A stretch of 63,472 nucleotides of DNA, the filler included, from Sphacelaria rigidula (taxonomy: Eukaryota), in assembly GCA_964200075.2 (NCBI GenBank). It is 6 parts of 6 records of this genome, joined end to end, with 100 filler letters (N's around TTAATTAATTAA, not from the genome) between each part and the next. Parts side by side here need not be neighbours in the genome. Positions count along the whole stretch, not along the records: positions 21,194 to 31,688 come from CAXNAA020006391.1; 5 more parts are not named here. One strand, written 5' to 3'. The notes under the pieces were generated by a model, which worked only from the letters and a program-made list of their open reading frames with translations, was not told the origin of the DNA and did no database searches. Both the position numbers and the translations under genes were made by a program. This document shows positions 10,598 to 63,472 of this stretch, piece after piece; position 1 is the first letter of the stretch; each line of letters begins with the position of its first letter.

Positions 10598-10669
10598 CCA
10601 CCTGCTCTCCGCCACACCTTCTCCCCCCCCCCCCCCCCCCCCCCCCACCTCCCACGTTGCGCCAAAAGC

Positions 10670-11350
10670 CCGGCGTGCTCCGTCCTGGCTCTGCAGGAAT
10701 ACGAGAACTACGACATGCAAAATCATGAGTTCTCTGCCCCCGCCCGTCGACACGATGGCTCTTTCAACACAAGTAGACTGTTTTGTGCAGTGACGACAGT
10801 AGGGAAAAGACGTTTTGTGCTCCATCCGTAAAATCGGCATTATTTCTCGTGAACATCTCCAGTACGGTAGCTTAATCCGTTGGGTGGATCATAGGTGCGG
10901 ACCATCATTATTGGTCGACAATGGCTTCAATGCACGCACGGACTGACTCTCTACTAGAGGTATTTCAAACTCGAGGTTCCCGTTTTTTGTCGCAGTATTT
11001 TGTAGTCAAATATATCGGTAACCCGAGTTAGCGATAGCCCCCTGCTAAGACCAAGGGTGGATGGATTTGTGTGTACTTCCGTTCCCTTGTCTTCTGTTTT
11101 TTTTCATCCACATGAACGTAAGCCATCACCCATACGATACTATACGCATCAGATCTGCGACCAGAGCGCTCGCTTCGTTCACCCATCAACAGCTTGAACA
11201 CCACCCTGCTCTGTTCGACATACATGGAGTAGGAGTGATCGGAAGGGGTCGCTTGCATCCATTACCGAACCACCATCTTATGATCCTTGACGCGGTATGC
11301 GTGAAGAGTCATGATATAGCGGTCCGCATCCAACGCGCGATACTGTAGCA
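10670..11350 (-). pseudogene. Possible degenerate Sola-like DNA transposase N-terminal region
   Basis: Minus-strand peptides IVWVMAYVH...YTQIHP and IMPILRMEHKTSFPYCRHC...H resemble the W..Y..IHLP and F-x2-C-x2-C motifs that precede the DDE core in Sola-type transposases. The frame is interrupted. Motif recall only. Confidence 0.35.
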
Positions 11351-21093: not shown

Positions 21094-21226
21094 NNNNNNN
21101 NNNNNNNNNNNNNNNNNNNNNNNNNNNNNNNNNNNNNTTAATTAATTAANNNNNNNNNNNNNNNNNNNNNNNNNNNNNNNNNNNNNNNNNNNNTTTTATA
21201 GGAGTTTGTATGGCGTTTGGGGGGGG

Positions 21227-21267
21227 GGCGTACTCATTTGTTGCTTACCTTGGTCATTTGACCATTG
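21227..21267 (-). mobile_element. Poly(C)-tailed retroposon-like insertion, short copy
   Basis: 41-bp insert flanked by the direct repeat ATGGCGTTTGGGGGGGG (21210-21226 and 21268-21284). Homologous to 37371-37446 and to 62182 onward. Confidence 0.75.
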
Positions 21268-24200
21268 ATGGCGTTTGGGGGGGGAGGGGAGGTTGTGGTA
21301 TAGTACGATACCCCCCCCCCATGAAATGTCCGAAAAAAAACGGGTACGTACGGGTGCAGGATGTTGTGTTTCGTGCAGCCCTGACTGTACCGACTACAAC
21401 AGAGATGTTCTCCTGTCGAGATCAAAAACCGCGCGAAAACACGCGGTGGATTCAAACCCTTGCTGGGGGCATCTTGGCGATACCATGTATACCTCTGAGC
21501 CACACGTCACAGGGGACGTGGGGTCCCACACGGGATTTATACGAGCTGGGCCAACCTAACAGCGATTTTGAGCTTTCGCAACAATATCCCAGCGACGCAA
21601 ACGAATATGGCTGTGTGATCCGCACATCTTCTGAATCCTATAATCAAGGGATAGATGTCGATCTACTCCGAAGCGCCGCTCAAGAGTTGTCGTCGTCGAT
21701 TCATCGCCGTGTCGAGTACATCTCGTCAGGTGAGGAGATATCTTCACACTACAGTCTGAGCGAAACCCCGAACGATGTATACAGGGGATGATGATTCTTG
21801 ATGTGGGCATCCATTGGAGCACGGGGAAACGATCGATACCCCCACCTGTACCTCATTCAGTATCCGTTTAGAGATATGGCGCACACAATGTTTTATACTA
21901 ATCTCAATATATCACGCGGAGAGGCACTTGATGTACTACATCTGGATTTCGCGTCTCAGCTTTGACATTAGGGAGTTTCGGAAGATGTTTTTTTTTCATC
22001 ATGGAGTCAGAGTGCAGAGTGGAAGCTTCGAAACTTTATAGTGGACGTTAAAACGTTCATAGCGGAAGCTGATGTTACGTGGCTTGACGTGATTTTTGTT
22101 TGTCGCAGTGATTGGCTACAGGTTGCCCCGCCGAATGTACGATCGACCAAGGTCCAGTTTGAAAGTGCGTAGGCCGGCACAACACTAACTGTACCGTACA
22201 CCGCGGCATCCTACGCACCGTACTCTACGATTTTTCACTTCACCTGGAGTACTTCGATCCACTACGGCGCACTTCAGGACACTCTAGGGCTGTAGTGCTG
22301 TAGTGCTATGCAGCGTGGAGTACAGTGCAGTACAGAGAGTGCCGTGCGCAGCACTTCAAAACAGCAGACCTCGGCCCCATTGCGATGATTCTCTCCCACA
22401 TGCCACCCATAACGGTGGTGCAAAGCGTCATGATCTCTTATGGGATGGGAATACAGCCAGGTGTGGTACTGCTTGTGCGCTGTGTACACTACGAATCGTC
22501 CCCACCGTCTTATTCTTCCAGCTGAAGCTGGCAAGAGTGGGGAATTGCACCCGAGGCAACGTGTATCGAGCATTTGAATTTTCACGCAACACAACCAAGC
22601 GAATGCTGATACCATGGCGGCGTCAGGGAGGTTTTATGATTGCGATGCGAAGCTTTTCTACTTCGTGAATGGCCCATTGTGATGAATATGACAGTTTTGG
22701 TGGATGAAGAATGTCTCACTTTGCTTGGTAGGTTGTATTGACTTTGGACTGGACGTGACCATGGTGGTGAAGGTGGACGGGGTTCTTCTTCATTCCGCTA
22801 TGATCTGAAGAGGAACAACGGTTTTCAGAGTGAAGTGGTGCAAACGGCACTCTGACTCTGAAAAAATCACTCTGAAAAATACTTGATAGCGGAAAGTGCA
22901 CCGTTACGGGCTATTTTTCCTTCAACTCTGACTCTAAGATTTGAAGAACGTTTTCCGAAACTCTCTATTGTTGTTTGAAACTTGGTACGGAATATCTCAA
23001 GGGCAAAAAGCAAAACCTGAAGATGACGTTGGACACATCCAGGATTTTCTTCATGAAATAAGGGCGTTTTTGTGAAAAATGGACACGTTTTTTGACCCTA
23101 CAGGCTGGTTCACGAGTCACACCCGTAGTTGTGCCATCAGCAGTTGTCTTGCGCAATACTTTTCTATTAGTCGCGGATATGGTATCATGTTGGCTGCAAT
23201 GAACAAACGAAGAGGATCACTCAGTCGGATTTTTGTTCAAGGCTGTCGTTTGTTCCCGGTTCCCCAGGTGTCCAACGGTAAGCCATTCTCAGCGTGTTCA
23301 TGAGCACATACTCACGTGGATTACCATGTACGCTGGATTCCGTACTGAGTCAGCATCAATCGCTCGGTATCACCTTGGTTTGTTTCCCATGTCTCCGTAT
23401 CAGGTGTGCCGGAGTGGAGAGACATCACAGGGGCCTTCCGCTTACGCCCGTGGCTGGCACTTCTGCAGTACATTTGCAGGCGTGAATCGCGGGGATAATA
23501 CGTGCTTCGTGGTGCGAATCTTGTGGTACAATGTCCACCGCCAAGGCTCGCAAAGTTGCGGTGGGTGACGTCTCGGAAGGTAGCAGGGCCAACACGGAGC
23601 GAGGTGAGGAGAATATTCACGGGACCGTACCCAATTGTATTCATGCGTTCTATCGCTAGTAATATCTGCTACTGCTCACCGCGTTATGTCACCGTCCAAC
23701 ACGAGTGATTCCTGCCACTATTGATCAAATTCTGAAATTATATCACTCACGAATCCAGTCCATTCGAGTCCGATACGTCTCAGACCAGAGCAACAGAATT
23801 GCAAATGCTACCTGCAAGTAATGTCATATTCTTTTCGGTTTTGCAAGAGTACAGAGAAGTGGCTCACCCGTCTTCCATGCGTATCCGGGCAATAATCTTG
23901 GCTAATATGTCCTACATTTCACTTGAAGACACGATTATGATGACGCTGTACGTCTGGTCATATCGTACAGTATCCAACGGCACAGTACTCTTGTAGTGGG
24001 GTGTCGGCTTCATCCTACCGGGGAGAAGTGCACCCGGACGTTGCGGAACCCCTTGTGAAACGCACCGTTTGCAAGATGATCGTACCATCAGACAACGATC
24101 CAAACGTTATATCCTGCAGAATGTGAGCTATTGTAGTGTCGGGACCGTTATCTTGGCTTCAAAATAACCTGTGATTGCACGAAGCCGCTTGTTCAAAATG

Positions 24201-28204: not shown

Positions 28205-29602
28205 ATGCCTGTCATGCGTGATCAGACCACGAATGTGTATCGGTTTTGCGTGTCTAGTTGTCCTACACGAGCTCCTAGGATCCACACTAAATCAACAAAG
28301 CGCTCTTTCTTCGTGTTTGTCCTAGGCGGTAGCCTGTTGCTGGATGCCTGCATCGTTGCACTTAACGGGGCTTCCGAGCAAGGGTCGTACTTGCCCACGA
28401 AATACTTGCAGCTGGCGTCACTACAGTTCTGCATAGCTTGCCGTGGCGTGAGCACGTTATGCGTGACCATCCATGGATGTACACCCCGATGGCTATGGGC
28501 ACCTTCTGCGGAGCAATCTCGGACTCCGACAGCCGGAAACAGATACCTCCCCCGCAGGACTCCCAGGACTCGGATACCTTTGTTGCGAGCTCGTGAAGTG
28601 GTGTGGACGTTGACTGCTGACGCGGAGTTTATGTCCAGCGAGAGCGAGGTCTTGGCCAATGTACGTTGTGTATGCTTCGACGACGAGTTCAACGGTAGTC
28701 TGAACAATGTCGTCTGGCCCCAGCGACTCAGGAAAATTGTGTTTGGCACCAGCCGGGTGTTTAGCAACAGAAGGGGACCCGATCGAGCAGTATTCAACCG
28801 ATCGATTACGAGAGTGGCGTGGCCTACCTCTCTGCAACAGTTGGAGTTCGGGAGGCGGTTCGACCAACCAGTTGCAGGTGTGACGTGGCCTACGTCATTG
28901 CAACAGCTGGCGTTCGGAGATTCCTTCAACAACCCGATCAAGGATATCACCTGGCCTTCACTGCAGCAGTTGACATTCGGACATAATTTCAACCAACCAA
29001 TCGAAGGTGTGGTTTGGCCTCCCTCTCTACAGCAGTTGACGTTCAGGCGGTCGTTCGACCAGCCCATTGAAGGTGTGTCGTGGCCTGCATCACTGCAACA
29101 GCTGACATTCGAGCGAGACTTCAACCAGCCAGTCGAGCGGGTTGCATGGCCTGCTTCACTTCAGCGGTTGACGTTCGGAAATAATTTCAACCAACCAATC
29201 GAGCTTGTGGCTTGGCCTGCATCTCTGAAGCAGGTAGTATTCGGACGAAATTTCAACCAGCCAGTCGAGCGGGTAGCGTGGCCTGCTTCGCTGCAGCGGT
29301 TGACGTTCGGGACACGCTTCGACCAACCGATCGAAAGTGTGGAGTGGCCTGCTTCTTTTCATCAGTTGACGCTAGGAGAATGCTTCAACCAACCAATCGA
29401 AAGCGTGGTGTGGCCTGCTTCGCTGCGTGACTTAAAATTCGGGAGGAACTTCAATCAGCCAATCAAGCTTGTGGTATGGCCTGTTTCGCTGCAGCGGGTG
29501 ACATTTGGGGACGGGTTTCGTCAGCCAATTCGGGATGTGACGTGGCCCACTCACCTTTCGGTCCACGTGAAACGAGCAAAACAAGTAGCGATACTCCGAT
29601 GA
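28205..29602 (+). CDS. FNIP (IP22) repeat protein with ~13 tandem 22-aa LRR-like repeats
   Basis: Repeats FNQPIxxVxWPASLQQLTFGxx from about 28680 to 29560 in an uninterrupted frame. A pyrimidine tract plus CTAG acceptor at 28325 suggests the true exon starts at 28326, with a possible short first exon at 28106-28148 (MGYQCLPCPVVNEV). Confidence 0.9.
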   Translation: MPVMRDQTTNVYRFCVSSCPTRAPRIHTKSTKRSFFVFVLGGSLLLDACIVALNGASEQGSYLPTKYLQLASLQFCIACRGVSTLCVTIHGCTPRWLWAPSAEQSRTPTAGNRYLPRRTPRTRIPLLRAREVVWTLTADAEFMSSESEVLANVRCVCFDDEFNGSLNNVVWPQRLRKIVFGTSRVFSNRRGPDRAVFNRSITRVAWPTSLQQLEFGRRFDQPVAGVTWPTSLQQLAFGDSFNNPIKDITWPSLQQLTFGHNFNQPIEGVVWPPSLQQLTFRRSFDQPIEGVSWPASLQQLTFERDFNQPVERVAWPASLQRLTFGNNFNQPIELVAWPASLKQVVFGRNFNQPVERVAWPASLQRLTFGTRFDQPIESVEWPASFHQLTLGECFNQPIESVVWPASLRDLKFGRNFNQPIKLVVWPVSLQRVTFGDGFRQPIRDVTWPTHLSVHVKRAKQVAILR

Positions 29603-36479: not shown

Positions 36480-37090
36480 GATTTTGGTCTTTGCAAACAC
36501 CCTGTTGGGAAGAGAAGCAGCTCGTGCTCAGAACACGATCCTCAACGGGTGTTATCGGGGTGATACAGAGGAAGTACCTTGTTCATCAGGGGGTGTTATC
36601 GACCGTCACTGGTAAAAAAACACACAGTTTTTCGGCTCTATCCCATGCAATAAGTAAAAATAAAATAAAAAGCTATTGTTTTCATTTGTTCACGAAAACG
36701 ATTGGAACTGCGTCAATCGAGTACAAACCCTCAAGGGTCAGAACCTTGGGCTGGGTAGTCTCAGCATCCCCCGAGATCGGTCAGCGCTTAACCCTTTCGG
36801 AACCCGTTGACGATGTCTGTTTTTGTGAGTCGGCATCATCCTGACTTTAAAATGACTGAAAATGATGTCGATTCACAAAAACAGAAATCGCCAATGGGTT
36901 CCGAAAGGATCAAGTCGTTCAATAATGAGCACAGATGGTATCTCATTGCGGAATGTGGAAGGGATACCCATTATCTTCCGATCCCCAAACTTTCGGATCA
37001 AACGTTCGTTGGGATGAGCGGTGGCACGCGAAAGCACTTTCGAATATCCCCGACTACGAAAAAAACTACGAAAATCTCCTATTTTCAATG
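36480..37090 (+). mobile_element. Partial copy of the long-TIR non-autonomous element at 56387-57333
   Basis: Shared blocks such as gaggaagta(c/t)cttgttc(a/g)tca..ggggtgttatcgaccgtcactggt and aatatccccgactacgaaaaaa..aatctcctattt. Confidence 0.8.
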
Positions 37091-37370
37091 TGAATTGCCG
37101 TACGTGAGCAGTGACGAAAACTTGATCAAAATACGGATGGGGGCAAGAATAAGGAGTTATCCGGGTCCCAAGTTTGATCTACATAACACCGAAGGTAAGG
37201 TGTGATATGAGAGTACGTTTTTGAGGATACTCTGATTATTCTCTCTTCTGAGTTCTCGTTTTATCCCTTTCTCGAGACGCCTTCGGCGATTGCTGTCGTT
37301 TTTGTTTGACTTGGGCACGCACGCTCATCTTGTATCGTAACTCACCACAGTTGGAGTCGTCAAGAGGGGG

Positions 37371-37446
37371 GGGGGCGTACTCATTTGTTGCTTGCCTTAG
37401 TCGTTTGACCATTGACTACGCATCCCTTTCGAGACGGAGCACTGGC
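37371..37446 (-). mobile_element. Poly(C)-tailed retroposon-like insertion, 76-bp copy
   Basis: Perfect 15-bp direct repeat GTCGTCAAGAGGGGG at 37356-37370 and 37447-37461. Confidence 0.8.
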
Positions 37447-38208
37447 GTCGTCAAGAGGGGGTCGGTCAAGGTACGACTACCAGCCAAATAAAGAATCAAT
37501 GTCTCAACCAACGAATCAAACAATGCATCAACCAACAAATCAAGCGAGAATGTACGGATCAACAAAATCAATGAATGGGCAATGCTACGGTAGGGGTGCA
37601 CTGTTTGCGCGAAATCTAGTCTGGTTCAGGGGCTCCTAACGATTATAGATGCACAAGAATATGGGTCAGGACATCGCCGTTTGCAAATTCATTCGGGATA
37701 TCCCCAGCACATCGGAATAGTGATCCTGGCGTACTCTCACATATTTTCATAAGTCGTGTCTTGGATGAGATACAGGGCTCTCAACAATTTTAACCTCAGA
37801 AAATATTTGTGCACCCCTTCCGTAGCATCACTCGAATCAATCGATGGATCAATGTATCAACCGATAAATCATTCAAATCAATTGAATCAACAGTCAATAA
37901 ATCAATGCATAAATCAACAAACCAATCAATCAATCAAGAGACAGGTGACGCACGAATGTTGAATCGGATGTTTCCACGCCCGGACATCGGTGTATGTAGT
38001 TGGAGCGGTCAACCAGTAATTTCCGACTCCTGAGTACACGATCAAACATGCCTGGTGGGTTGTGTGGTGATAGTACGAGAAGAGAGACAATGTGCGCTCG
38101 ACTGCTAAATCTCGGGCCAAGTTTACGAGCAGGCCGATGCACAGTGAACCGCCAAAATTGGGGGGGAAAATGAAGGGAAAAAAAACACATGCATATACAT
38201 ATATATAC

Positions 38209-40185
38209 AAAAAAGGGTACACCCTGATACTTTTGGAACAGTAACGCATACTTCGGTTGGAGGCGCAGCGCTGAACGCGGGTTGAACACCTCGAAAACAC
38301 GTCCCAGCGCCTCAGCCCCACGCACAAGGTGTTTGGGCAATATGCCCGATTATTTTTATTTTCACATGTGGTACTGGCTTAACTACGGCGCGGAAAAGGA
38401 CAGCCTGTGGGGGTACCCTTTTTTGTGAACAAACCAGGAAGCTACACCCTGCTCTCTGCTAAATAAATCATATTTTGGCCTTTTTCGTTTGTGTGGATCC
38501 TTTGATGCTCAAACGCATACCCTTCTTTACCCTTTTTTTGTGAAGTGGTGACCGTACCGCCGGCTCCGCAGAAGATCCGCCGAACAGTCACAACCATACT
38601 TATTTATTTTGTGAATTACACCCCGCCATAGAGGTCGACACCCAACGACCCAGAAATTGTAGCCCCCTGCTGGTTGGCCCGCAGACGCGGAAGATCCGAC
38701 GATGCATCCGGGATGCGAATGCTTATATGCCGGAGCTTACAAATATATGACGAACATGTGTTGTGCCGTTCGGGCGTGTGTGTCGGCAAGGTTTTTCACG
38801 CACGTTTGTTGGAAATTTGTGAGCTCCGGCACACCAGCGTTCGCATCCTGGATGCATCGTCGGATCTTCCGGGTCTGCGGGCCAACCAGCACAGGGCTAC
38901 AATTCCTGGGTTGTTGGGTGTCGGTCTTTTTGGCGGGGTGTCAGTATTTCACAAAAAAAAGGATATGGTTGTAACTGTTCGGCGTATCTTCTGCGGAATC
39001 GGGGGTACGGTCACCATTTCGCAACAAAGGGTACAGAAGGCTATGCACTTGAGCATTGAAGGGTCCACACTTGAACAAGAATAACCAAGAGATTATTTGT
39101 AGCAGAGAGCAGGGTGTACCCTCCTGGTTTGTTTACAAAAAAGGGTACTCTCACAGGCTGTCCTTTACCGTGCCGTAGTTGCGCCTATTCTATGGGTGGG
39201 TGTATCCTTTTTACATATTGCCCAAAAATAAACGTTATGCAAAGCTGACATCTACCACGTGTGAAGAATCTTGTCGGCACACTCACGCCCAAACCGCATC
39301 ATGTAGCATCATCATGTGGAACATCAGAGACCGTTGCGGGATCTGCAATTTGCCGTCCGATATTTGTGATCTCCGGCAGAGAAGCGTTCGCGCCTGGATG
39401 CATCGTCGGATCTTCAGGGTCTGCAGGCCAACCAGCTGATTGATTGATCGATGGATTGATTGATTGATTGATCGATTGATTGATCGAATGTCGCACTTTA
39501 ACTGACCCCCCAGGGGTCCAGCCGTGGCCGCATGATAGACGTACCCAAGAAAAACAAAACCGAAGAACTCGCTAAGAAAAAATAAGGAACAGAAACGAGT
39601 CGAACAGAACGACATAGTAGACTAAGACATGAAAGAATAAAAAGTCCACAAAGGCAAAGCACAGAAATAAATGGCCGATCTAAAACCAAAAAAAAAAAAC
39701 GAAGAAGAAATAAAATAAGGGGCCTACAACTTCTTGGTCGTTGGGTTTCGGCCTTTTGGCGGGGTGTCATTTCACAAGAAAATGGGATGGTTGTGACCGT
39801 TCGGCGTATCTTCTGCGAAGCTGGTGATACGGTAATCACTTCACAAAGAAGGGTAAAGCAGGGTATGCACTTGAACATTAAAGGGTACACACGCGAAAGA
39901 AAAGGGTAAGAGATGGGTTTTTTTAGCAGAGTAGGGTCTACCCTCCCGGTTTGTATTCAAGAAAGGGTGCTCTTACAGGCTCTTCTTTTCCGCGTCGAGG
40001 TCAAGCCTAATACCACGTGTGAAAATAAAAAAATGGTCGGACATGGTACCCAGACACCCCGTGCGTGATGCCAAGGCCCTGGAACGTGTTTCGAGGTGTT
40101 GCAGCCAGGGTTCAGCGCCGCGCCCCAAACCGAAAATGCGTGACACTTTCTTGTTCCAAAAACATGGGAGTACACCCTTTTTTTT
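38209..40185. mobile_element. Foldback element with ~510-bp arms and a duplicated right arm
   Basis: Left arm 38209-38721 is the reverse complement of both 38838-39180 and 39385-40185, e.g. ggaagatccgacgatgcatcc / ggatgcatcgtcggatcttc. Confidence 0.8.
39437..39720 (-). mobile_element. Non-LTR-type 3' end with an (AATC)n tail, nested in the foldback arm
   Basis: (TGAT)n followed by tgtcgcacttta.ctgaccc...atagacgtaccc. It splits the arm sequence ccaaccagc|..gggc.tacaa, which is intact at 38882. Relatives occur at about 41425-41590, 41890-42035 and 51006-51390. Confidence 0.7.
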
Positions 40186-40355: not shown

Positions 40356-40657
40356 ACGGTAGGGAGAAAAAAAGAGAGACAGACAGAGAGGCAGAGAGAC
40401 AGAGAGAAGAGAGGTGCGTAAAGGTATTTCTTGTGAAGTGCAAGGGGGCCCTTTACGCCGCCGACTAAGTTGTAGAATATGACATCACGAATGTTTGCTA
40501 CGGCAGTACGAGTCGAAAAGCAGCAGAATCACATGAGGCAGGGTTGGGCATCGGAAGAATCTAGCGGTGCCATATATATACACCACAAGCCACTGGCAGA
40601 AGTGCCTTCTCGGGGGAATGTATATATACATATAGTGTATATATATATATATATATA

Positions 40658-40829
40658 TCACACCCTGGACAATATGTGGTCAATAGATGCAATAGACAAA
40701 ATATGTACTGGATAAAGTATAGACCTATTGCACCTAATGACGGCCGACACTACTTGCAATAGGTCTATACTTTACTCAGTATACTTTTTGTCTATTGCAT
40801 CTATTGACCATATGCTGTCCAGGGTGTGA
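40658..40829. mobile_element. 172-bp near-perfect hairpin (MITE or miRNA-like foldback)
   Basis: Arms of ~75 bp (tcacaccctggac...agacctattgca / tgcaataggtct...gtccagggtgtga) around a ~22-nt loop, next to a (TA)n run. Confidence 0.85.
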
Positions 40830-43080
40830 CATACATGTATTGCCGACCGATAGGGTGATGACGATACTCCGAAGTTAATCTCAACACTCTACATGAGCCA
40901 GATAGGCGTCGACTTTTCGCCGTATATTATTACATATCAATTACTCGAAAGTAGATCGGTGGATCCGTGCAGCCAATATGCCGACATTCTCGCGACATAC
41001 CAGCTTCGTCTGTACATCGCGAGGACACATATATACATATATATACATGAGAGGTTGCGCCTTCAGGTGCCTGCCGAGGGCGAAACCCGAACGGTGAAGA
41101 CGCAAGATCCATCGCTCTTAGGTCATCATCCATTGGGAACAACTCCCATGTTATGTATAGCCGGTAACGGCAACCTGGTGATGGCGGTGCCGATTACCGA
41201 CACAGCGCGATTCATAGGCCTGTCGTATCTGTTTTGTCTTTGCTCTTCTGTTTACCGAGACGGGTGCTAGATATTAATCTGCCGTTTTTCGCGCGGGGTT
41301 CTGTAGTTTACTCCCTCATGTTCTCTATTCCTTCCCCATATTTTTTCTCCACCTTTGAGCGAGCTTTTTGGGATATTTGCTCTAACCTCGGACACGTCTA
41401 TATGTGGAAAATGATCACGGCTGTTGGATTGATTAATCGAATGATGATTGTGGTGCTTTCACTGATTCCCGAGGGATGAAGTCGTGTAGTCATTATCCAC
41501 AAAATAGACGTACCGAGACAAAACAAAACGAAAACAGTCGCTGAAGAGAAGTGAAGACGAACAAAACAGGGAAACATACAAACAGATGGGCACGTATATC
41601 TGTAGGAAATGACCACAGGTGTTTGTTTGATTGATTACGAGGATCGGACGAATGAATGATTCGTCTGGAAATCACTTGATTTTAGGGTGATTGATGATTC
41701 GTACCGTACGAATCGCTTGTGCTTTGTGTACAGCGTTGCACTCGAGGTACGCGCACCCCAGGCACGTGGAATGGCGCAAAAATTGCGTGAAGACATTTTT
41801 GACCAGCGGTCGATTTTTTCCCTCTTTCGAGCAATCAGGCCTGAAAAATCATGGATTTGATTCGAACCGGCGATGATTTGTCCGAACCGTGATTGATTAG
41901 ATTGGCGATTGTCGCTCTTGAACTGATCACCCAGGAGTCATGATCCGGTTGTGGTCATCATCCACATGATAGACGTACCCTCGACACTAAACAAAACGGA
42001 AACACTCGCTGAAGAGCAGTGAAGAAAAACATACAGGTATTATGTGCGTGTGTGCTGTCGTCCCATCTATTCTGGACGCCGGTCTACACCTTTCGGCATA
42101 CGTGGGCGCACTAGCCGGGGTCACACAGGAGGAAGGTCAACACAGGTTTTTTTTTCTTTCTTGTCTGTTTTTAGTACTCCACCTTCCTTCTGCAATGCTT
42201 GCCTTTATTTTTTTATCGCGAGAGGGGTGCAGCAGTCCCTTTCCCTCGTCGACCGTTAAGTCGAATTTTGTGTACCCACGACANNNNNNNNNNNNNNNNN
42301 NNNNNNNNNNNNNNNNNNNNNNNNNNNTTAATTAATTAANNNNNNNNNNNNNNNNNNNNNNNNNNNNNNNNNNNNNNNNNNNNCCAGCAGCTCCTGATTT
42401 GATTTTTTTCCCCTCAAACGAGACAACTGTTTATCAGCCTTTGGGGCGTCACTTGCTCAGCAAGACGTTGTCGAAATAATGCGCACGAGCCGTGCGTGGT
42501 TCGTTCGTGTGTTTAATGAATAAACTTGGATGGTGTGCAGTGGTTTGAGCAGTGTTGAATGTTGTTTTCGATTCATTTATCAATAATAGTTCTTTAATAA
42601 TTCAAGATGACTCAAGCAAGCAAGTAAATACGATTACGCCAAATAAATAGCGCAGATCCTCCGGCTACACCCCCTCAGCCACACTAGTGCGGCCGTTGCA
42701 GTGGTTGCTGCGGTCACAGAAGGGTGAAGGGTTTGTGGTTCGTCGCAACTGCCCCCCTCCCCCGCCTCGATCTTTTGCTCCAACTAATTAGTCTCGCCGC
42801 GTTTTTGCGAAAAATCCTTGGCTCTACTTGTTCTGGTGTTAGGGTGCCGATCTCTAGTCATCTGACTCACTTGGGTTTGCTAGGATTCATGATGAGGTTG
42901 CATCAAGCAATGGATCAAGCGGTTAATGTTCGCTTACACAAGCCCAACACCAAACCAAGACTTGCCGAGACCGCGACTGTTTTGTTTTTTGCTGCTTGTG
43001 CTTGGGCATGCTCTGCAAGTGAAGTGACTCTTCTCCCCCGTTCAACCCAGTCTAAAACCAAGAAACTTGTGGTTGAGCTT

Positions 43081-43345
43081 GGTTGCATCAAGTATATAGG
43101 ATTAACTATAGAACCGGAACCTGCCAGCCCGCTTGGTTGCATTAAGTATACAGGCTTTAGTATAGAACCGGAACCTGCCAGCCCGCTTGGTTGCATCAAG
43201 TATATAGGATTTAGTATAAAACCGGAACCTGCCAGCCCGCGTGGTTGCATTGAGTATATAGGATTTAGTATAGAACCGGAATCTGCCAGCCCGCGTGGTT
43301 GCATTGAGTATATAGGATTTAGTGTAGAGCCGGAATCTGCCAGCC
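43081..43345 (+). repeat. 54-bp minisatellite, ~5 units
   Basis: GGTTGCATYRAGTATATAGGATTTAGTATAGAACCGGAAYCTGCCAGCCCGCKT repeated head to tail with no spacers. Confidence 0.95.
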
Positions 43346-46300
43346 TGGACACGGTCCCAACAGTGCTACCCCCCCCCCAATCGGCCCCAAATGGAAAAAA
43401 AGTTAGTGTGGGTCCAGGGATATTTTTTTCATCCGCCCTTGGCCACTTGAACCTCATTTCAGAGATCAACCCCATTTTCTAGGATCCACTGTTTTATGCA
43501 GTTGAATCAAGATCACCTCGGCACGTTGTAATTGCGCCAAGCTACTTCAAAATTCAACGAGATAGGACTCTTCTACACTACACTCGTACGAAATCATGAA
43601 GCGAAGAAAAAATAAATGAACCATCTCCCACACCCCTACGGGCGAGCATCGCTGCGATCCGTCACATCAAACGTTCAATTCACAAGAAGAGAAAGTCGTA
43701 CTCATGTGACGCTCATTACCTATGTTGAACAAGACAACACACACGCAAGCCCATCTACAAAGTAAAGCACTAAATGGTACGCACGCGTAGCCTGAATCTA
43801 CCAAAGGAACAAGGAGGAAATGCCAGCCAATCCGGGAACAAGGGAGGGAAAACACGGTTGCGGCGTAGCATTGCGGCGACTGCTCTGGTCAGACGCAGAT
43901 CCAAGTGAGCTTCACGTCTTTGTCCGACTCCGTCCCTACACATCCGTCGCGTATAGCGAGAGTGGCACTCCGCTCGTTTCCGTGGCAGGGCGTTTGAAGT
44001 ATCAAAACTGCCTTGAAAAAGGCGTGCGACGTAAAGTACAATGCGATGAGGGGGAACTACGCAGCAACAGGGAAATAGAAGCGGGGGTGCAGCCCAAGTT
44101 CAGGTTTGGTGTGCCCGAAGTGCAAAATTCAAAACCTCCGCGGGAGTGGGCACAAGCCCACCCAAGACAACACTCAGGGTAAGAAGCCAAGGGTCGTTGG
44201 TGATAAATTTTCGTTCCGCGCGGCGGATCATCTATCGCGTGTTATGAGCAAAACAAAAGTGTTGAAAAAAAAGAGAGCCTTAGTCAGAACGTAAAACCAA
44301 ACTCAAAGCAATCGTCCGGCGGAAGTACGGCCTACAACAAGGGCGCAAAATTGCTAATTCCCGTGGAAACACTAGACCACGAGCAGTGGAACAATACAAG
44401 AGACCACACCCGTGTCACTAGCTAACCAGGCTGCTCCACGGGGTAGGGGTAAAACAAACAAACGAACACATCCGGGTGTCGAAACGCAGTAACTCACCTC
44501 GACCTAAAACAGCCCTCGGGCATGAATACGGCCTGCAACATGGGCGGTATAGTTAGCAGTACAAGGTGTAACCAAGGACCCGTGCAACAAGACGATGTAG
44601 GGGAGTACTCCCGTGCAGCGAGCTCTCTTGGCTGGCGGCGGTGAGTTGAGCAGTGACAACAAAAAGTACATCCGGAGAACGAGTCATCAAAATTCCAAAC
44701 ATGTGGGAGGCTGGGCTAAATCTACAGTCCTCTTATCGCGTAAAAATACCCTCGAAGACAGAACAAAAACACCAGATGCTCAGGAGACACGGACAGAAAT
44801 GCGACAGCGGCAAGAAATGTGACTACGGGTACTAGAAACGCAGTCATCAAGAAGGCGAACTCAACACAAAGGGACACGGTACTGAAACCAGTGAGGGGCT
44901 ACAATGCAGCAAAGGGGACGGAGGGGGGGGGCTACGATCTGATATCTGACCAGATCGGACTGGGGGATTCTGGAATCCGCCAAGGTGAGCTCATCGCTGA
45001 CTGCATCACCGAGGGATGTGGCTGGTATGTCGTAGCAGCCCAAGTTTAGGCCTACGATACAACCGGTGTTGGGGGGGCTACGATCCTATACCTGACCAGA
45101 TCAGGCCCAAGGGAGTGCTGGGAAGCAGCAAGGGCAGCGGCATATGGAAGGAGCACGTGGGCTGTGTCCAAAGCCGTCTCCTCTACGAGGGAAAACGTTC
45201 GAGTATACTTTGCATTGATGAGGGGGGACACGGTGCGCTAGGAGTACCTGCGCGGTTACGGGGCCATCCCTCTCTCCTTCACAAGGGGCGGGGGCTATCT
45301 GATACTACAGGGAAAAGCTCAATTGGGCCGGACTGAAGTGATATTGTCAAACATCGTGGGGTAGTTGCGCAAAATTTGTGGGCTTCCATCCGAGGGCAAA
45401 ATTTGTCGCTAAAACCATAGTACTCCCGACGGAAGTCATCAGTAAATACAAGAAAAGGTCAATCAGGTCTGATTAAAGTGATGTGGGCAAACATCGGTTC
45501 ACAACCGGTGGACTTACATCCAAAGGCAAATTTTGTCGCTAAAACCACAATGTGTTCATTATCAGGCGAGTCCTGAAATGAGGTTCGATTTGTTGTACCG
45601 TTGACGGAAAACAAAAAACAAATATATCATGACAAGGAAATCGGTGAGGCGGCGTTGTCCCAGAATGGCGGAAATCAACTACTGTAGACTCGAACCAATA
45701 ATTGTGCCAACGTCAACAACGCGATGTCCGGTATTATATGCGTGTGCTGTCACAGGGGGGAATATATTGTTTCCACGACTGACGGTTCAACTTCCCACAC
45801 CTTAGAATCATGCTGCGCGGTGGGGTACCGCAACACACAGAAGAGCGCCCTGTGGGGGAAGGGTGGGGGTTGCGCATCTACTAATATGTTGGGTGCACGT
45901 CCAGGTACAGGGGGGCGTTTTATTTCGGCGAATGGGAAATCAACCGAATGCTGCTACAGCATGAGCCGTCAAAACCAACTATTGACTACCGTACTGGTGT
46001 AATTGTGATCGGTGGATACACAGTTTGCACGTGGCACAGTAGCGCGTGTGATACCCTGTTCGAAGGCAGGGTCGGCACACTTTAGTAAGACAGGGTAATG
46101 GTTGGCTGCATGCACAAGGCAGAATTAGAACGCAGTTCCGGCCAGACCTATGCATAGTCAGTAATCCAACGAAGTGCGTCACCATGGCACTTACGTGGAT
46201 GTAAACAAGCGGGGACAGAACCGAAGGGCAGCTACAGCAAATCGCTTAGCACCTGTGGCCTGTGTACGATGAGAGGTGGCATCTCCGACGGTCAAAGGGT

Positions 46301-49055: not shown

Positions 49056-49308
49056 GACACTTTCTGAGATAGCCCCCCCCCCCCCCAAACCAGCCCAAAG
49101 GTATCACGAAAAAATGGCCATACAGCGCCTGATGTTTGGGTTCAGGCTACATGAAGCGCCTCATATTGGCGACATTGGCGAGAACGAAGTCAAGTGTGGA
49201 AATTTCCAGCTGCTAGTTGTGCTCGGCTTTTTCCATTTCGATTCACGTGAAGATTTCCCCCCACCAAACCATGCACCTTTTTGCGGGGGGGCTATCGTAG
49301 AAAGTGTC
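49056..49308. mobile_element. 253-bp MITE with GACACTTTCTACGATAG-poly(C) TIRs, copy 1
   Basis: gacactttctgagatagccccc ... gggggctatcgtagaaagtgtc, flanked by ATAT on both sides. Confidence 0.9.
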
Positions 49309-49414
49309 ATATGTATATCTTGCACATTAGTATGCACAAGAACGCTCTGGCATTGTGCACTCATGTCGGAACGTTATCATTCACCCGGGCATGCGTCACC
49401 GGACGGTATCGCAG

Positions 49415-49570
49415 GTTGTAAATATAGCTACACCAGGGTATGGTGTCCGAGATTTTCTGGAACAGCAACTTGTGGAACGACTGCCCAAAGATTTGGATTT
49501 GGATATCCTGGTGGTGGACTTTGGCGTGAACGACGCGGTTATCGAGCGCTTCGACTTCAACGTCAACGAA
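49415..49570 (+). CDS. Internal exon of an SGNH/GDSL-type hydrolase
   Basis: cag| and |gtaagg boundaries, 156 nt, phase 0-0. VVNIATPG...DILVVDFGVND matches SGNH blocks II and III (GxND). Other exons were not identified. Confidence 0.7.
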
Positions 49571-50088
49571 GTAAGGTGGGAGCCAATCTGGTGGCCGCGA
49601 TGAGGTCGGGAGTCCTCGGTGGGCGTTGTTTTTTGCGTGAGCTGGGTTGGGTAGAATCCGTATCAACGTCGAGTGATCCCACAATGCGGGAGGGAAATAT
49701 TTGGTAGCACAGGAAAAGGGATATGTGGGTGTGATGAACAAGCTTGCACCGTGCGTGTTTCATGATCGTGGGCGTAGTAAGTTTTTCCTTGCATTTTGTC
49801 CGTTTCTATCGCGGCGTTGTGGCCACGAGCGGCAGATTTCCGGGAAAGGACTAGTTCGAGAAACAACAACAACAGCAACAGGAGCCACAAAGTGCTTGAA
49901 TAGCGTTGAAGAACTTACCAAGCATTGCAATCGAGAGTGTGTCAAGCTGATACTAGGGATATCGAAAATATAAACGCTTGCAGGGACGCTTTCAAGCGAG
50001 GGCTGTGTACAAGAAGTGCCTTGAACCTTCTCCCATACTGTACAGTCAATTCGTTGCAAACTTTCGTCTTGCCCTTACGTACCTTCTT

Positions 50089-50346
50089 GACACTTTCTAC
50101 GATAGCCCCCCCCCCACAAAAGTGCATGGTTTTGGGAGGCAAAAATCTTCACGTAAATCTAAATGGGAAAAGCCGAGCACAGCNNNNNNNNNNTGGGAAT
50201 TCCCACGCTTGGGTTCGTTCTAGCCAATGTCGCCAATATGGGGCGCTTCATGCAGCCTGAACTTGAACACCAGGCGCTGTATGACCATTTCTTTCGTGAC
50301 ACTTTTAGCTGGGTATTTTTGGGCGAGGGCTATCGTAGAAAGTGTC
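50089..50346. mobile_element. Same MITE family, copy 2, in opposite orientation
   Basis: Same TIRs, with the internal sequence reverse-complementary to copy 1 (ccaatgtcgccaatatg versus catattggcgacattgg). Flanked by TT on both sides. Confidence 0.9.
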
Positions 50347-52143: not shown

Positions 52144-52586
52144 ACAGCTGATCATCGAAATTAAGGATGGAGCTCTTCATTGAGGATGAGAACCCGGGAG
52201 ATCAAAATCTTCGTATCCAAACCAAGTCTTCGGAATATTGTTCCATTCCTTCACCTACTCGTAGCTATTTACAAGTACTGCACGTCATACAAATTTTGGA
52301 TGTCGATAACCGAAATGTTGAGGTTTTAGGTGAAAAACTAATTTTGGGGAGTTTCCGCGATCCGATCGGATCACCCGAATTCCCCAAAATTGTTTTCTCA
52401 TCTAGGATCCTGACATTTCGGTTATCGAAATCCAAATTTATAGGGCGTGTAGCAGTTGTTAATGGCTACCAATAAGTGAAGGAATGGAACCATATTTCAA
52501 AGATCTGGCATGGATACGAAGATTTTAATCCTCCGGGTTTTCATCCTCAACGGAGAGCTCCATCCTCAATTTAGATGATCGACTGT
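52144..52586. mobile_element. ~440-bp almost spacerless palindromic MITE
   Basis: Arms of ~215 bp mirror each other around gatccgatcggatc (~52365). Ends are acagctgatcatc and gatgatcgactgt. Confidence 0.85.
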
Positions 52587-52878: not shown

Positions 52879-53232
52879 NNNNNNNNNNNNNNNNNNNNNN
52901 NNNNNNNNNNNNNNNNNNNNNNTTAATTAATTAANNNNNNNNNNNNNNNNNNNNNNNNNNNNNNNNNNNNNNNNNNNNGGACTGCTCGGGCCCGGCTTTG
53001 TAGGGATGCGAGGTCAATGGTCTTATGACTATGGCATGCATCATCATGAGTACACCCCCCTCCCCCACGGCAGCTATGAAAGGACGCGTTCGTCTTATGT
53101 TGATGAAAAAATTATGGAGGAAGTAGGGGAGGAGGGCGGAGAAGCGGTAGCAACGCGAAGGAAGGCCTCGCTACAAGTCAGCCGGTTTGAAAAATTGCAC
53201 AACGAGAGGACACACGCACAGGTCTTTGTTCT

Positions 53233-62181: not shown

Positions 62182-62430
62182 GGGGGGGGCATACTCAGTT
62201 GTTGCTTGCCCTTATCATTTGACCATTGACCACGCACCACTTTCGAGACGGAGCATCGGTCCTACTCCTTGGAGAGGGAGCAAAGATCTGCATCTTTTTC
62301 GACTGTCAGAGTACCACCACGCGGCCCGAAAACCACTCAGGTTGACAGCAAGGGGTGTTAGGGAGTAATCTACCGCCGCATCCCAATTGGCCGGTTCGAT
62401 CGGATATATGGGTTCGAATCCCACAATAAA
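62182..62430 (-). mobile_element. Poly(C)-tailed retroposon-like insertion, longest copy, intronic
   Basis: G8 followed by catactcagttgttgcttgcc..atcatttgaccattgaccacgcacc.ctttcgagacggagca, matching 21227 and 37371. The distal boundary and TSD are uncertain. Confidence 0.65.
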
Positions 62431-63472
62431 GAGTGTATCTATCGATTTACGTGGAAATTATGAGGACGTGAGTCATGTATGGGGCCGGTTACGTACAGGT
62501 GTACAACAAATGCGGCGGGATTTGGCTTGTAGTCGTTGCACCAACCATTGCAGGACGTTCAAGTGAGTCGGCTTACAAATTCGGAGCGCTCTTTTTTTAA
62601 TTTCCTTTACAACCTCTGAAACGTTCAACCGTGTTTCGTAGATCACATGGCCAGCACGCCCCGAGCGCTACGATAGAACAATCTCCTCGTGGGCTACGTG
62701 CGAGATTGAAAAGCCGTAGAGCGTACCAATGCTGAACCTATGAACTTGAGTGACCCAATGTGCCCGATTCTGCTGTATGGTGAAGAAACATTGTAGGTAC
62801 TATTCCCGTCGATATTATGGACGGCTTGTATCCTCAGCAAAAATAATCAAATGCACAAAATGACGTATGCGTGTCGAACCCATCAAACGAACAGAAGGAG
62901 AAAAACGGACCGCTGAAATGGTGGAATAACCCATGAAACAGCACTACTGTATGAATGCACGCGATTGACCTTTAATATTGTACCGAGGTAAGTACCCCTC
63001 ACTCGTCATATTTTCTGGAAAGCCTGTGACGGTGTAGAGGCGCCTCTGTGATTTGCTTTCTTCACCAATCAATATACACTGAGAGTCGAGGCATCTAAGA
63101 ACAGACCATTGGATTGGATTTCGGCTGCTTTTATTTTTATTTTGCCTCGCTAGTCTTGGTTTCAGACAGAGGAAAGACTCCCCTCTCTAAATCCCAAACA
63201 AATTCCATACAACGTGTGACACCTTTTGTTGCAAAGTAGAATTATCTCCATGTGTATATTTACCCGTGGACTGCGAATTAAAGGAGCGGGTTCACGTGGT
63301 CAGAGACCATCCAACGAGTACGAATGGCAAGGGACCCTAACGTTGAAAACATAAATGAGCCCAATTGCGTGCGTTCTATTTTGATAACCATCCCCCCACA
63401 CCCATGAGGCAGGGTAAAAGCCGTGCCTGTCTCTGGAAGTGGCGATACCACAGAATAAAGCAACTCATTGTA

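Follow-up and report, generated by a model that had tools for sequence, protein, structure and literature searches.

Short repeats beside G-runs in Sphacelaria rigidula are 5'-truncated copies of an abundant LINE, probably of the RTE-X type

RESULTS

Three LINE tips in the window

The window analyzed here is a 63,472-nucleotide (nt) stretch of Sphacelaria rigidula DNA (GC content about 49%), in which small contigs of a 244-Mb assembly with 27,214 contigs are joined end to end by N spacers. The initial annotation described three copies of a repeat family in three scaffolds, sharing one fixed end. We found all three, each on a separate contig between spacers and each with the same fixed end (Table 1). 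Pairwise identity among them was 85 to 94%. Compared to the 3' end of the intact relative L152, copy 1 was 94% identical over 50 nt, copy 2 was 97% identical over 78 nt, and copy 3 was 87% identical across 62182-62276. Copy 2 also gave a tblastn match to residues 1342-1360 of protein P0001. The window copies, 39, 67, and 87 nt long, are 5'-truncated 3' tips of a LINE whose length is at least 5 kb and whose one ORF contains an APE endonuclease and a reverse transcriptase (RT). The clean target site duplications (TSDs) ascribed to two of them were recovered, perfect over 17 bp in copy 1 and exact over 15 bp in copy 2, and the TSD G-run merges with the tail as described, with two extra G's in copy 1 and five in copy 2. 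Copy 3 had been drawn to about position 62430; this extent was ruled out, as homology stops near 62276.

Table 1. Positions of LINE and family B features, counted along the whole window
Feature	Positions	Strand	Remarks
Copy 1, proximal TSD	21210-21226	.	Adjoins the 3' end of the element; 17 bp with G8 at its end; perfect match to 21268-21284
Copy 1, tail	21227-21228	-	Two C's past the TSD; G10 here vs G8 in the distal TSD copy
Copy 1, LINE 3'-terminal 39 nt	21229-21267	-	Last ORF codons, stop, 5 nt
Copy 1, distal TSD	21268-21284	.	Runs on into the remainder of the original G-rich tract
Copy 2, proximal TSD	37352-37370	.	15 bp exact (37356-37370), 19 bp with one mismatch
Copy 2, tail	37371-37375	-	Five C's past the TSD; G10 here vs G5 in the distal copy
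Copy 2, element, 67 nt	37376-37442	-	Exactly the conserved 3' module; codes for C-terminal residues of the ORF
Copy 2, distal TSD	37443-37461	.	Exact 15 bp at 37447-37461; 19 bp with one mismatch
Copy 3, C8, tail or target run	62182-62189	-	G8, then the fixed end
Copy 3, LINE 3'-terminal ~87 nt	62190-62276	-	More diverged than the other copies; without a clean TSD
Family B, 3' end	52983-53054	+	87% identity to copy L181; C-rich tract 53055-53066 follows; cut by the contig end
Family B, 3' end, degraded, internally deleted	10665-10730	+	
Family B, internal fragment at the window's end	63398-63471	+	85% over 74 nt

The window copies carry no SINE Pol III head, and because they are ORF-terminal LINE tips, they are not SINEs. 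A tRNA or Rfam origin of the core was rejected: ARAGORN found no tRNA in the window, and Rfam gave only chance-level matches, around copy 3.

The proposal that the family seeds or extends the G/C homopolymers of this genome is weak as an account of these runs. A G-run is duplicated by insertion and in some cases lengthened, yet the LINE family touches only 4 of the 21 G/C runs of at least 8 in the window and was therefore rejected as their main source. Several of the other runs sit in the termini of an unrelated repeat used by the LINE as a target. Termini of MITE-like or other DNA elements, with a G/C homopolymer beside a short conserved motif, were seen at 49056-50346 (G/C runs at 49073 and 50106), an interval spanned by an inverted pair of them, and similar G/C runs lie in termini at 1617, 1834, 21311, 44923, and 52846. 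These termini are LINE targets. Long inverted-repeat (MITE-like) elements appeared in the self-comparison at 38381-39180, 52144-52586, 40647-40840, and 36787-36914. The window also contains another abundant repeat (37579-37833), a tandem coding-like repeat of about 54 bp (43077-43345) within a 264-aa open frame (42688-43479), and a 465-aa open frame with FNIP-type repeats on the plus strand (28205-29599).

The parent LINE

An exact 20-mer from the fixed end had 4,150 matches genome-wide, far above chance, and the reversed control had none. Among 42 3' ends met at loci chosen by other queries, 15 have this 20-mer, which puts the family total at a rough estimate of 11,600, or roughly ten thousand, copies. 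Long copies, which continue for over 1.5 kb, encode on the minus strand the C-terminal half of a LINE ORF; this ORF ends at the fixed end, its stop codon 5 nt before the C-run. Extension of these copies, a check suggested in the initial annotation, thus led to the RT/endonuclease ORF. The RT domain was recognized in a frame from the S. rigidula genome (RVT_1, E = 4e-28), and APE motifs, although broken, are visible in copies from this genome. Copy L080 aligns to L152 over 5.0 kb at 80% identity; the exact 5' end is not fixed, and the length of at least 5 kb is a lower bound. No intact ORF was found among the 150 scored of 1,894 RT candidates in the S. rigidula genome, the longest open frame being 383 aa, showing that the copies examined are decayed.

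Intact relatives (L152, L162, and P0001) have a single ORF of about 1,360 aa with Pfam domains Exo_endo_phos and RVT_1. A C-terminal CCHC-like motif belongs to the ORF architecture, and the closest solved structures among PDB matches were those of L1 ORF2p and R2. L152, L162, L151, and L155 are relatives from public contigs, and all four end in the same motif followed by a C-run. No relative was found among 88 pattern matches in viral contigs. Among named homologues, those of Ectocarpus sp. CCAP 1310/34 are the nearest (59% identity in the RT region), and L152 is 53% identical over the full ORF to the multicopy EN-RT protein P0043 of Ectocarpus sp., which belongs to a 73-member cluster.

Several related sequences were noted in passing. 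Proteins P0012, P0016, and P0018 (ENA/Logan contigs) have about 50% RT identity and a similar C-terminal peptide, and some of the clusters have hundreds of members. The more distant L154 (37% protein identity) has an AT-rich tail instead of a C-run, a hint that one lineage switched its tail or its target; a similar 3' stem-loop is recognizable in it (L154:3082-3160). L080 and L152 have a conserved stretch with broken reading frames that lies about 600 nt ahead of the main ORF, and identity in this stretch reaches 92% over 137 nt between L152 and L062. It could represent either a short ORF preceding the main one or a structured 5' untranslated region.

Insertion into preexisting G-runs

TSDs were sampled at 70 loci taken from the first 100 pattern matches listed. 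These loci contained 76 copies, and 66 remained after 10 copies at locus edges were dropped. TSDs of 10 to 20 bp were called in 26 of the 66 copies, compared to 2 to 6 of 66 in five mismatched pairings. The other 40 copies had no TSD under the strict rule, and many of these have near pure-G TSDs, N gaps, or decay. Element length ranged from 28 to 918 nt. The hallmarks of target-primed reverse transcription (TPRT) named in the initial annotation, a fixed 3' end, 5' truncation, and long variable TSDs, thus extend from the window to this larger sample.

A run of at least five G's (G5+) was present at the far junction in 46 of the 66 copies, compared to 3.4% of random 35-nt windows. The G's on that side can only be derived from the target. 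On the fixed-end side, five G's and a C stand immediately before the 20-mer at 2,535 of its 4,150 exact matches. In the sample, 49 of the 66 junctions have at least three adjacent G's, 17 have fewer than three, and 7 have none.

Empty sites gave the same picture. For one host repeat terminus, we compared 17 matching paralogous sites, of which 16 were empty and 1 was filled. In L128 and L140, a G-rich run is duplicated on either side of the insertion, and the 16 empty sites have this run as well. Together with the far junctions, this bears out the claim that the element inserts into genomic G-tracts that already exist. In addition, contigs of all four runs, one of them under a second organism label, have G-runs at the loose ends of the consensus on both sides, and many head-to-tail joints between family copies were found in contigs of the four runs. 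At the orthologous site of copy 2, the unique flanks were covered in only one of the four runs, and no joint skipping the insertion was present among the matches listed.

One copy, L086 (G000:C35 near 4150), has about 10 extra bases resembling telomeric CCCTAA repeats between its truncated 5' end and the TSD, possibly due to a template switch or untemplated addition.

The C-run at the junction

The G-tract could be scored in 22 copies with a TSD: on the proximal side it was longer than on the distal side in 10 of them, of the same length in 2, and shorter in the other 10. This shows that nicks often lie inside a run and that extra G's were added in part of the cases. The gain reached about 11 G's at some junctions (L125 and L127). 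The junction pattern fits pairing of the target G's to a C-run of the RNA, with slippage.

A conserved 3' module and a truncation hotspot

Conservation rises sharply at the 3' end. The last 68 nt are 94 to 100% identical among the S. rigidula family, L151, L152, and L162, compared to 76 to 87% for the 410 nt upstream in the same set (95% for the close pair L151/L162). Against the distant L155, identity was 83 to 86% over the last 68 nt and 60 to 64% upstream. The 67-nt module is predicted to fold into a three-way junction with a 6-bp stem that pairs its first and last bases. Support for this fold is modest: covariation was limited to 1 of 22 pairs changed on both sides, in a module that overlaps the coding ORF; single-copy folding z-scores were only -1.5 to +0.1; and in the RNAalifold consensus family B folds otherwise and shares just the closing stem.

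The edge of this module coincides with a preferred 5' end of the copies. In 35 of the 66 sampled copies, the element ends at 60 to 70 nt, and in a second tabulation, the ends of short copies were spread over 56 to 70 nt, with 30 of 54 at 64 to 68 nt. Exact matches numbered 2,874 for a 26-mer inside the module and 555 for a 30-mer across its edge, a comparison that is only indicative because the lengths differ. Short and long copies had no diagnostic bases at positions 1 to 62, save one position that is due to the picking of the long sample, which was biased by its query. Thus, short copies as a separate subfamily were rejected. They are slightly less diverged than long ones (2.7 vs 4.3 mismatches per 60 nt).

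We hypothesize that the RT stalls at the module edge, which would yield the copies of 60 to 70 nt. An alternative upstream hairpin (predicted at -7.8 kcal/mol) could use the freed 5' arm of the closing stem and would sit where the RT would stop. Precise release of the module by a nuclease was rejected, given the ragged ends and the lack of such a peak in family B (0 of 30 copies end at 70 to 80 nt), which is without the sequence that lies upstream of the module in the LINE.

A nonautonomous partner

Family B is about 560 bp long, with 694 exact 21-mer matches genome-wide. It ends in the 3' motif of the LINE plus C's and has TSD-like flanks rich in G; its similarity to the autonomous relatives is confined to the 3' module (about 67 to 73 nt). 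The family B 3' end at 52983-53054 was absent from the initial annotation. L181 and other members have a direct repeat of about 35 nt near their 5' end, which copies the 5' edge of their own 3' module, and 6 of 30 family B copies stop near 300 nt.

DISCUSSION

In L1 TPRT, the APE endonuclease nicks a homopolymer-rich target, and the freed 3' end pairs with a homopolymer of the RNA. We consider it very probable that the inserts described here are 5'-truncated products of an abundant RTE-X-type LINE that targets G-runs and is primed at a C-run. By analogy with L1, with G:C in place of T:A, the RT would bind the conserved, structured 3' RNA module of about 67 nt, and the endonuclease would nick the G-rich strand at a G-run or inside it. 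Pairing of the released 3' G's with the C-run that follows the module would then prime cDNA synthesis, with slippage accounting for the variable length of the C-run, and a second nick about 10 to 20 bp away would generate the TSD. About half of the insertions would abort at 60 to 70 nt as the RT leaves the module, perhaps at the alternative upstream hairpin once the stem opens. Since each insertion would duplicate the G-run and thereby provide a new target, tandem and nested copies would follow.

Within this scheme, the C-run could stand at the very end of the RNA, as originally proposed, or be internal to a read-through transcript; the two fit the data equally. We lean toward the latter, with the donor's genomic C-tract contained in the transcript and primed internally, because a genomic C-tract follows each donor copy and this route calls for no new enzyme.

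A more radical form of the oligo(C) end would be an RNA that is cut or ends at the acceptor-stem-like 67 nt with one unpaired purine, so that a processed small RNA is C-tailed without a template by a nucleotidyltransferase and copied as a unit, the APE endonuclease having been retuned to nick G-runs. A LINE of this kind would bypass poly(A) altogether, and a small processed RNA would be its most often retroposed unit. The 6-bp closing stem predicted in both families, the length class at 60 to 70 nt, to which window copy 2 belongs with exactly 67 nt, and the gain of up to about 11 G's in L125 and L127 would suit it. We nevertheless regard it as improbable, since the ends of the short copies are spread over 56 to 70 nt, family B has the same stem and no peak at 70 to 80 nt, the closing stem never varies and covariation therefore says nothing for it, and ARAGORN detected no tRNA in the window. 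The strong length mode, the excess of 26-mer over 30-mer matches (indicative only, as noted), and the slightly lower divergence of short copies could also mean that copies of about 66 nt come from the source genes of a distinct mini-SINE and not from abortive LINE insertions. This, too, is unlikely: the short copies have ragged ends, no promoter or head sequence, and no diagnostic bases apart from the one position explained by sampling.

Doubt may also be raised about the tail itself. If the element stopped before the C-run, all junction G's would come from the target, through the TSD and later homopolymer slippage; the 12 of 22 copies in which the proximal tract is equal to or shorter than the distal one, and the 7 of 66 junctions without an adjacent G, agree with this. 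However, 10 of 22 junctions gained G's, some of them 8 to 11 beyond a G3 target (L125 and L127), window copy 2 gained five, and a fixed end beside G-runs is best explained by pairing to C's of the RNA, so we give a tailless element little credence. Least credible is derivation of the core from the terminus of a DNA element (TIR) or LTR element (LTR), or from a Chlamys Penelope-like element. Targeting of (C)n has been reported for Chlamys elements (PMC8557442), and Chlamys families occur in Ectocarpus (PMC12477816). Yet the end studied here is contiguous with a LINE-type APE-RT ORF, there is only one fixed end, and Pfam gave the APE domain and no GIY-YIG or integrase match. The ORF and the one-sided truncation contradict both equal truncation at the two ends and a TIR/LTR core, two of the findings that would have spoken against the initial annotation.

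This LINE accounts for thousands of 40- to 70-nt repeats and for clustered G-tract insertions in the genome, which is of use in annotation. It is also a tractable system for studying target choice by an APE endonuclease and RT and the primer-template pairing needed for TPRT.

The C-tail as such is only moderately surprising. A (C)n-ended RTEX LINE with a C-rich TSD is already on record for Ectocarpus in a 2025 supplement (PMC12477816, MOESM3), where the entry for RTEX-1_Ec32 reads "single EN-RT ORF; (C)n 3'" with a "C-rich" TSD, that for RTEX-2_Ec32 reads "(C)n termini/TSD," and both are 5.5 to 5.9 kb long. The Sphacelaria LINE resembles these entries in its single EN-RT ORF (about 1,360 aa), C-run 3' end, C-rich TSD, and length of at least 5.0 kb. 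The likeness lies in listed features and, as a proxy for the consensus sequences, in the 53% protein identity. Assignment to RTE-X would follow from the same table, in which (CAA)n is the 3' end of the remaining curated EN-RT LINEs (RTE-1/2). The two differ in host genome and in protein sequence (about 53% identity to the Ectocarpus sp. ORF), and the Sphacelaria copies are decayed. Family B has a counterpart in RTEX-N1_Ec32, a nonautonomous family of about 600 bp found in tandem (PMC12477816); the 3' end in common is 60 bp there and about 67 to 73 nt in the 560-bp family B. The RTEX rows and passages of that publication give no mechanism, target test, or truncation hotspot. Our literature search, with most subscription journals and Repbase Reports outside its scope, yielded no paper devoted to a (C)n mechanism, and among titles and abstract openings, none beyond PMC12477816 dealt with (C)n-tailed LINEs. 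What the present analysis adds is evidence from empty sites, the conserved 3' module, and a hotspot of truncation where that module begins; the printed RTEX passages do not mention truncation at 60 to 70 nt, at the edge of a highly conserved 67-nt module that is predicted to close on itself.

Other known systems share single features with this LINE. Green-algal RTEX LINEs also end in repeats other than poly(A), but the tails given in Table 3 of PMC3747384 are (CA)n, (CAA)n, (CCAT)n, (ACAATG)n, and (CTTGTAA)n, not (C)n; the same table lists (ATT)n for RandI. In PMC5753468, RTEX is merely named as a clade in the part consulted. Chlamys elements are alike in targeting (C)n repeats, but they have a GIY-YIG endonuclease and a PLE-type RT and are unrelated to an APE LINE (PMC8557442). 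The "stringent" LINE/SINE pairs UnaL2 and SART1, for which the concept of a stringent 3' stem-loop is set out in PMC3747384, are similar in that a conserved, probably structured 3' end is common to an autonomous element and its nonautonomous partner. In contrast to these pairs, the Sphacelaria module overlaps the last codons of the ORF, and the 3' untranslated region is only 5 nt long.

The closest mechanistic parallel is TPRT by human L1 ORF2p, with its APE nick, homopolymer pairing, long variable TSDs, and 5' truncation. Unlike L1, which uses a T-run and poly(A), the Sphacelaria LINE would combine a G-run with oligo(C), its 3' recognition appears to be sequence stringent, and it has a single ORF. 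With roughly ten thousand copies and intact relatives in public contigs, it would be a natural G:C mirror of the T:A priming of L1.
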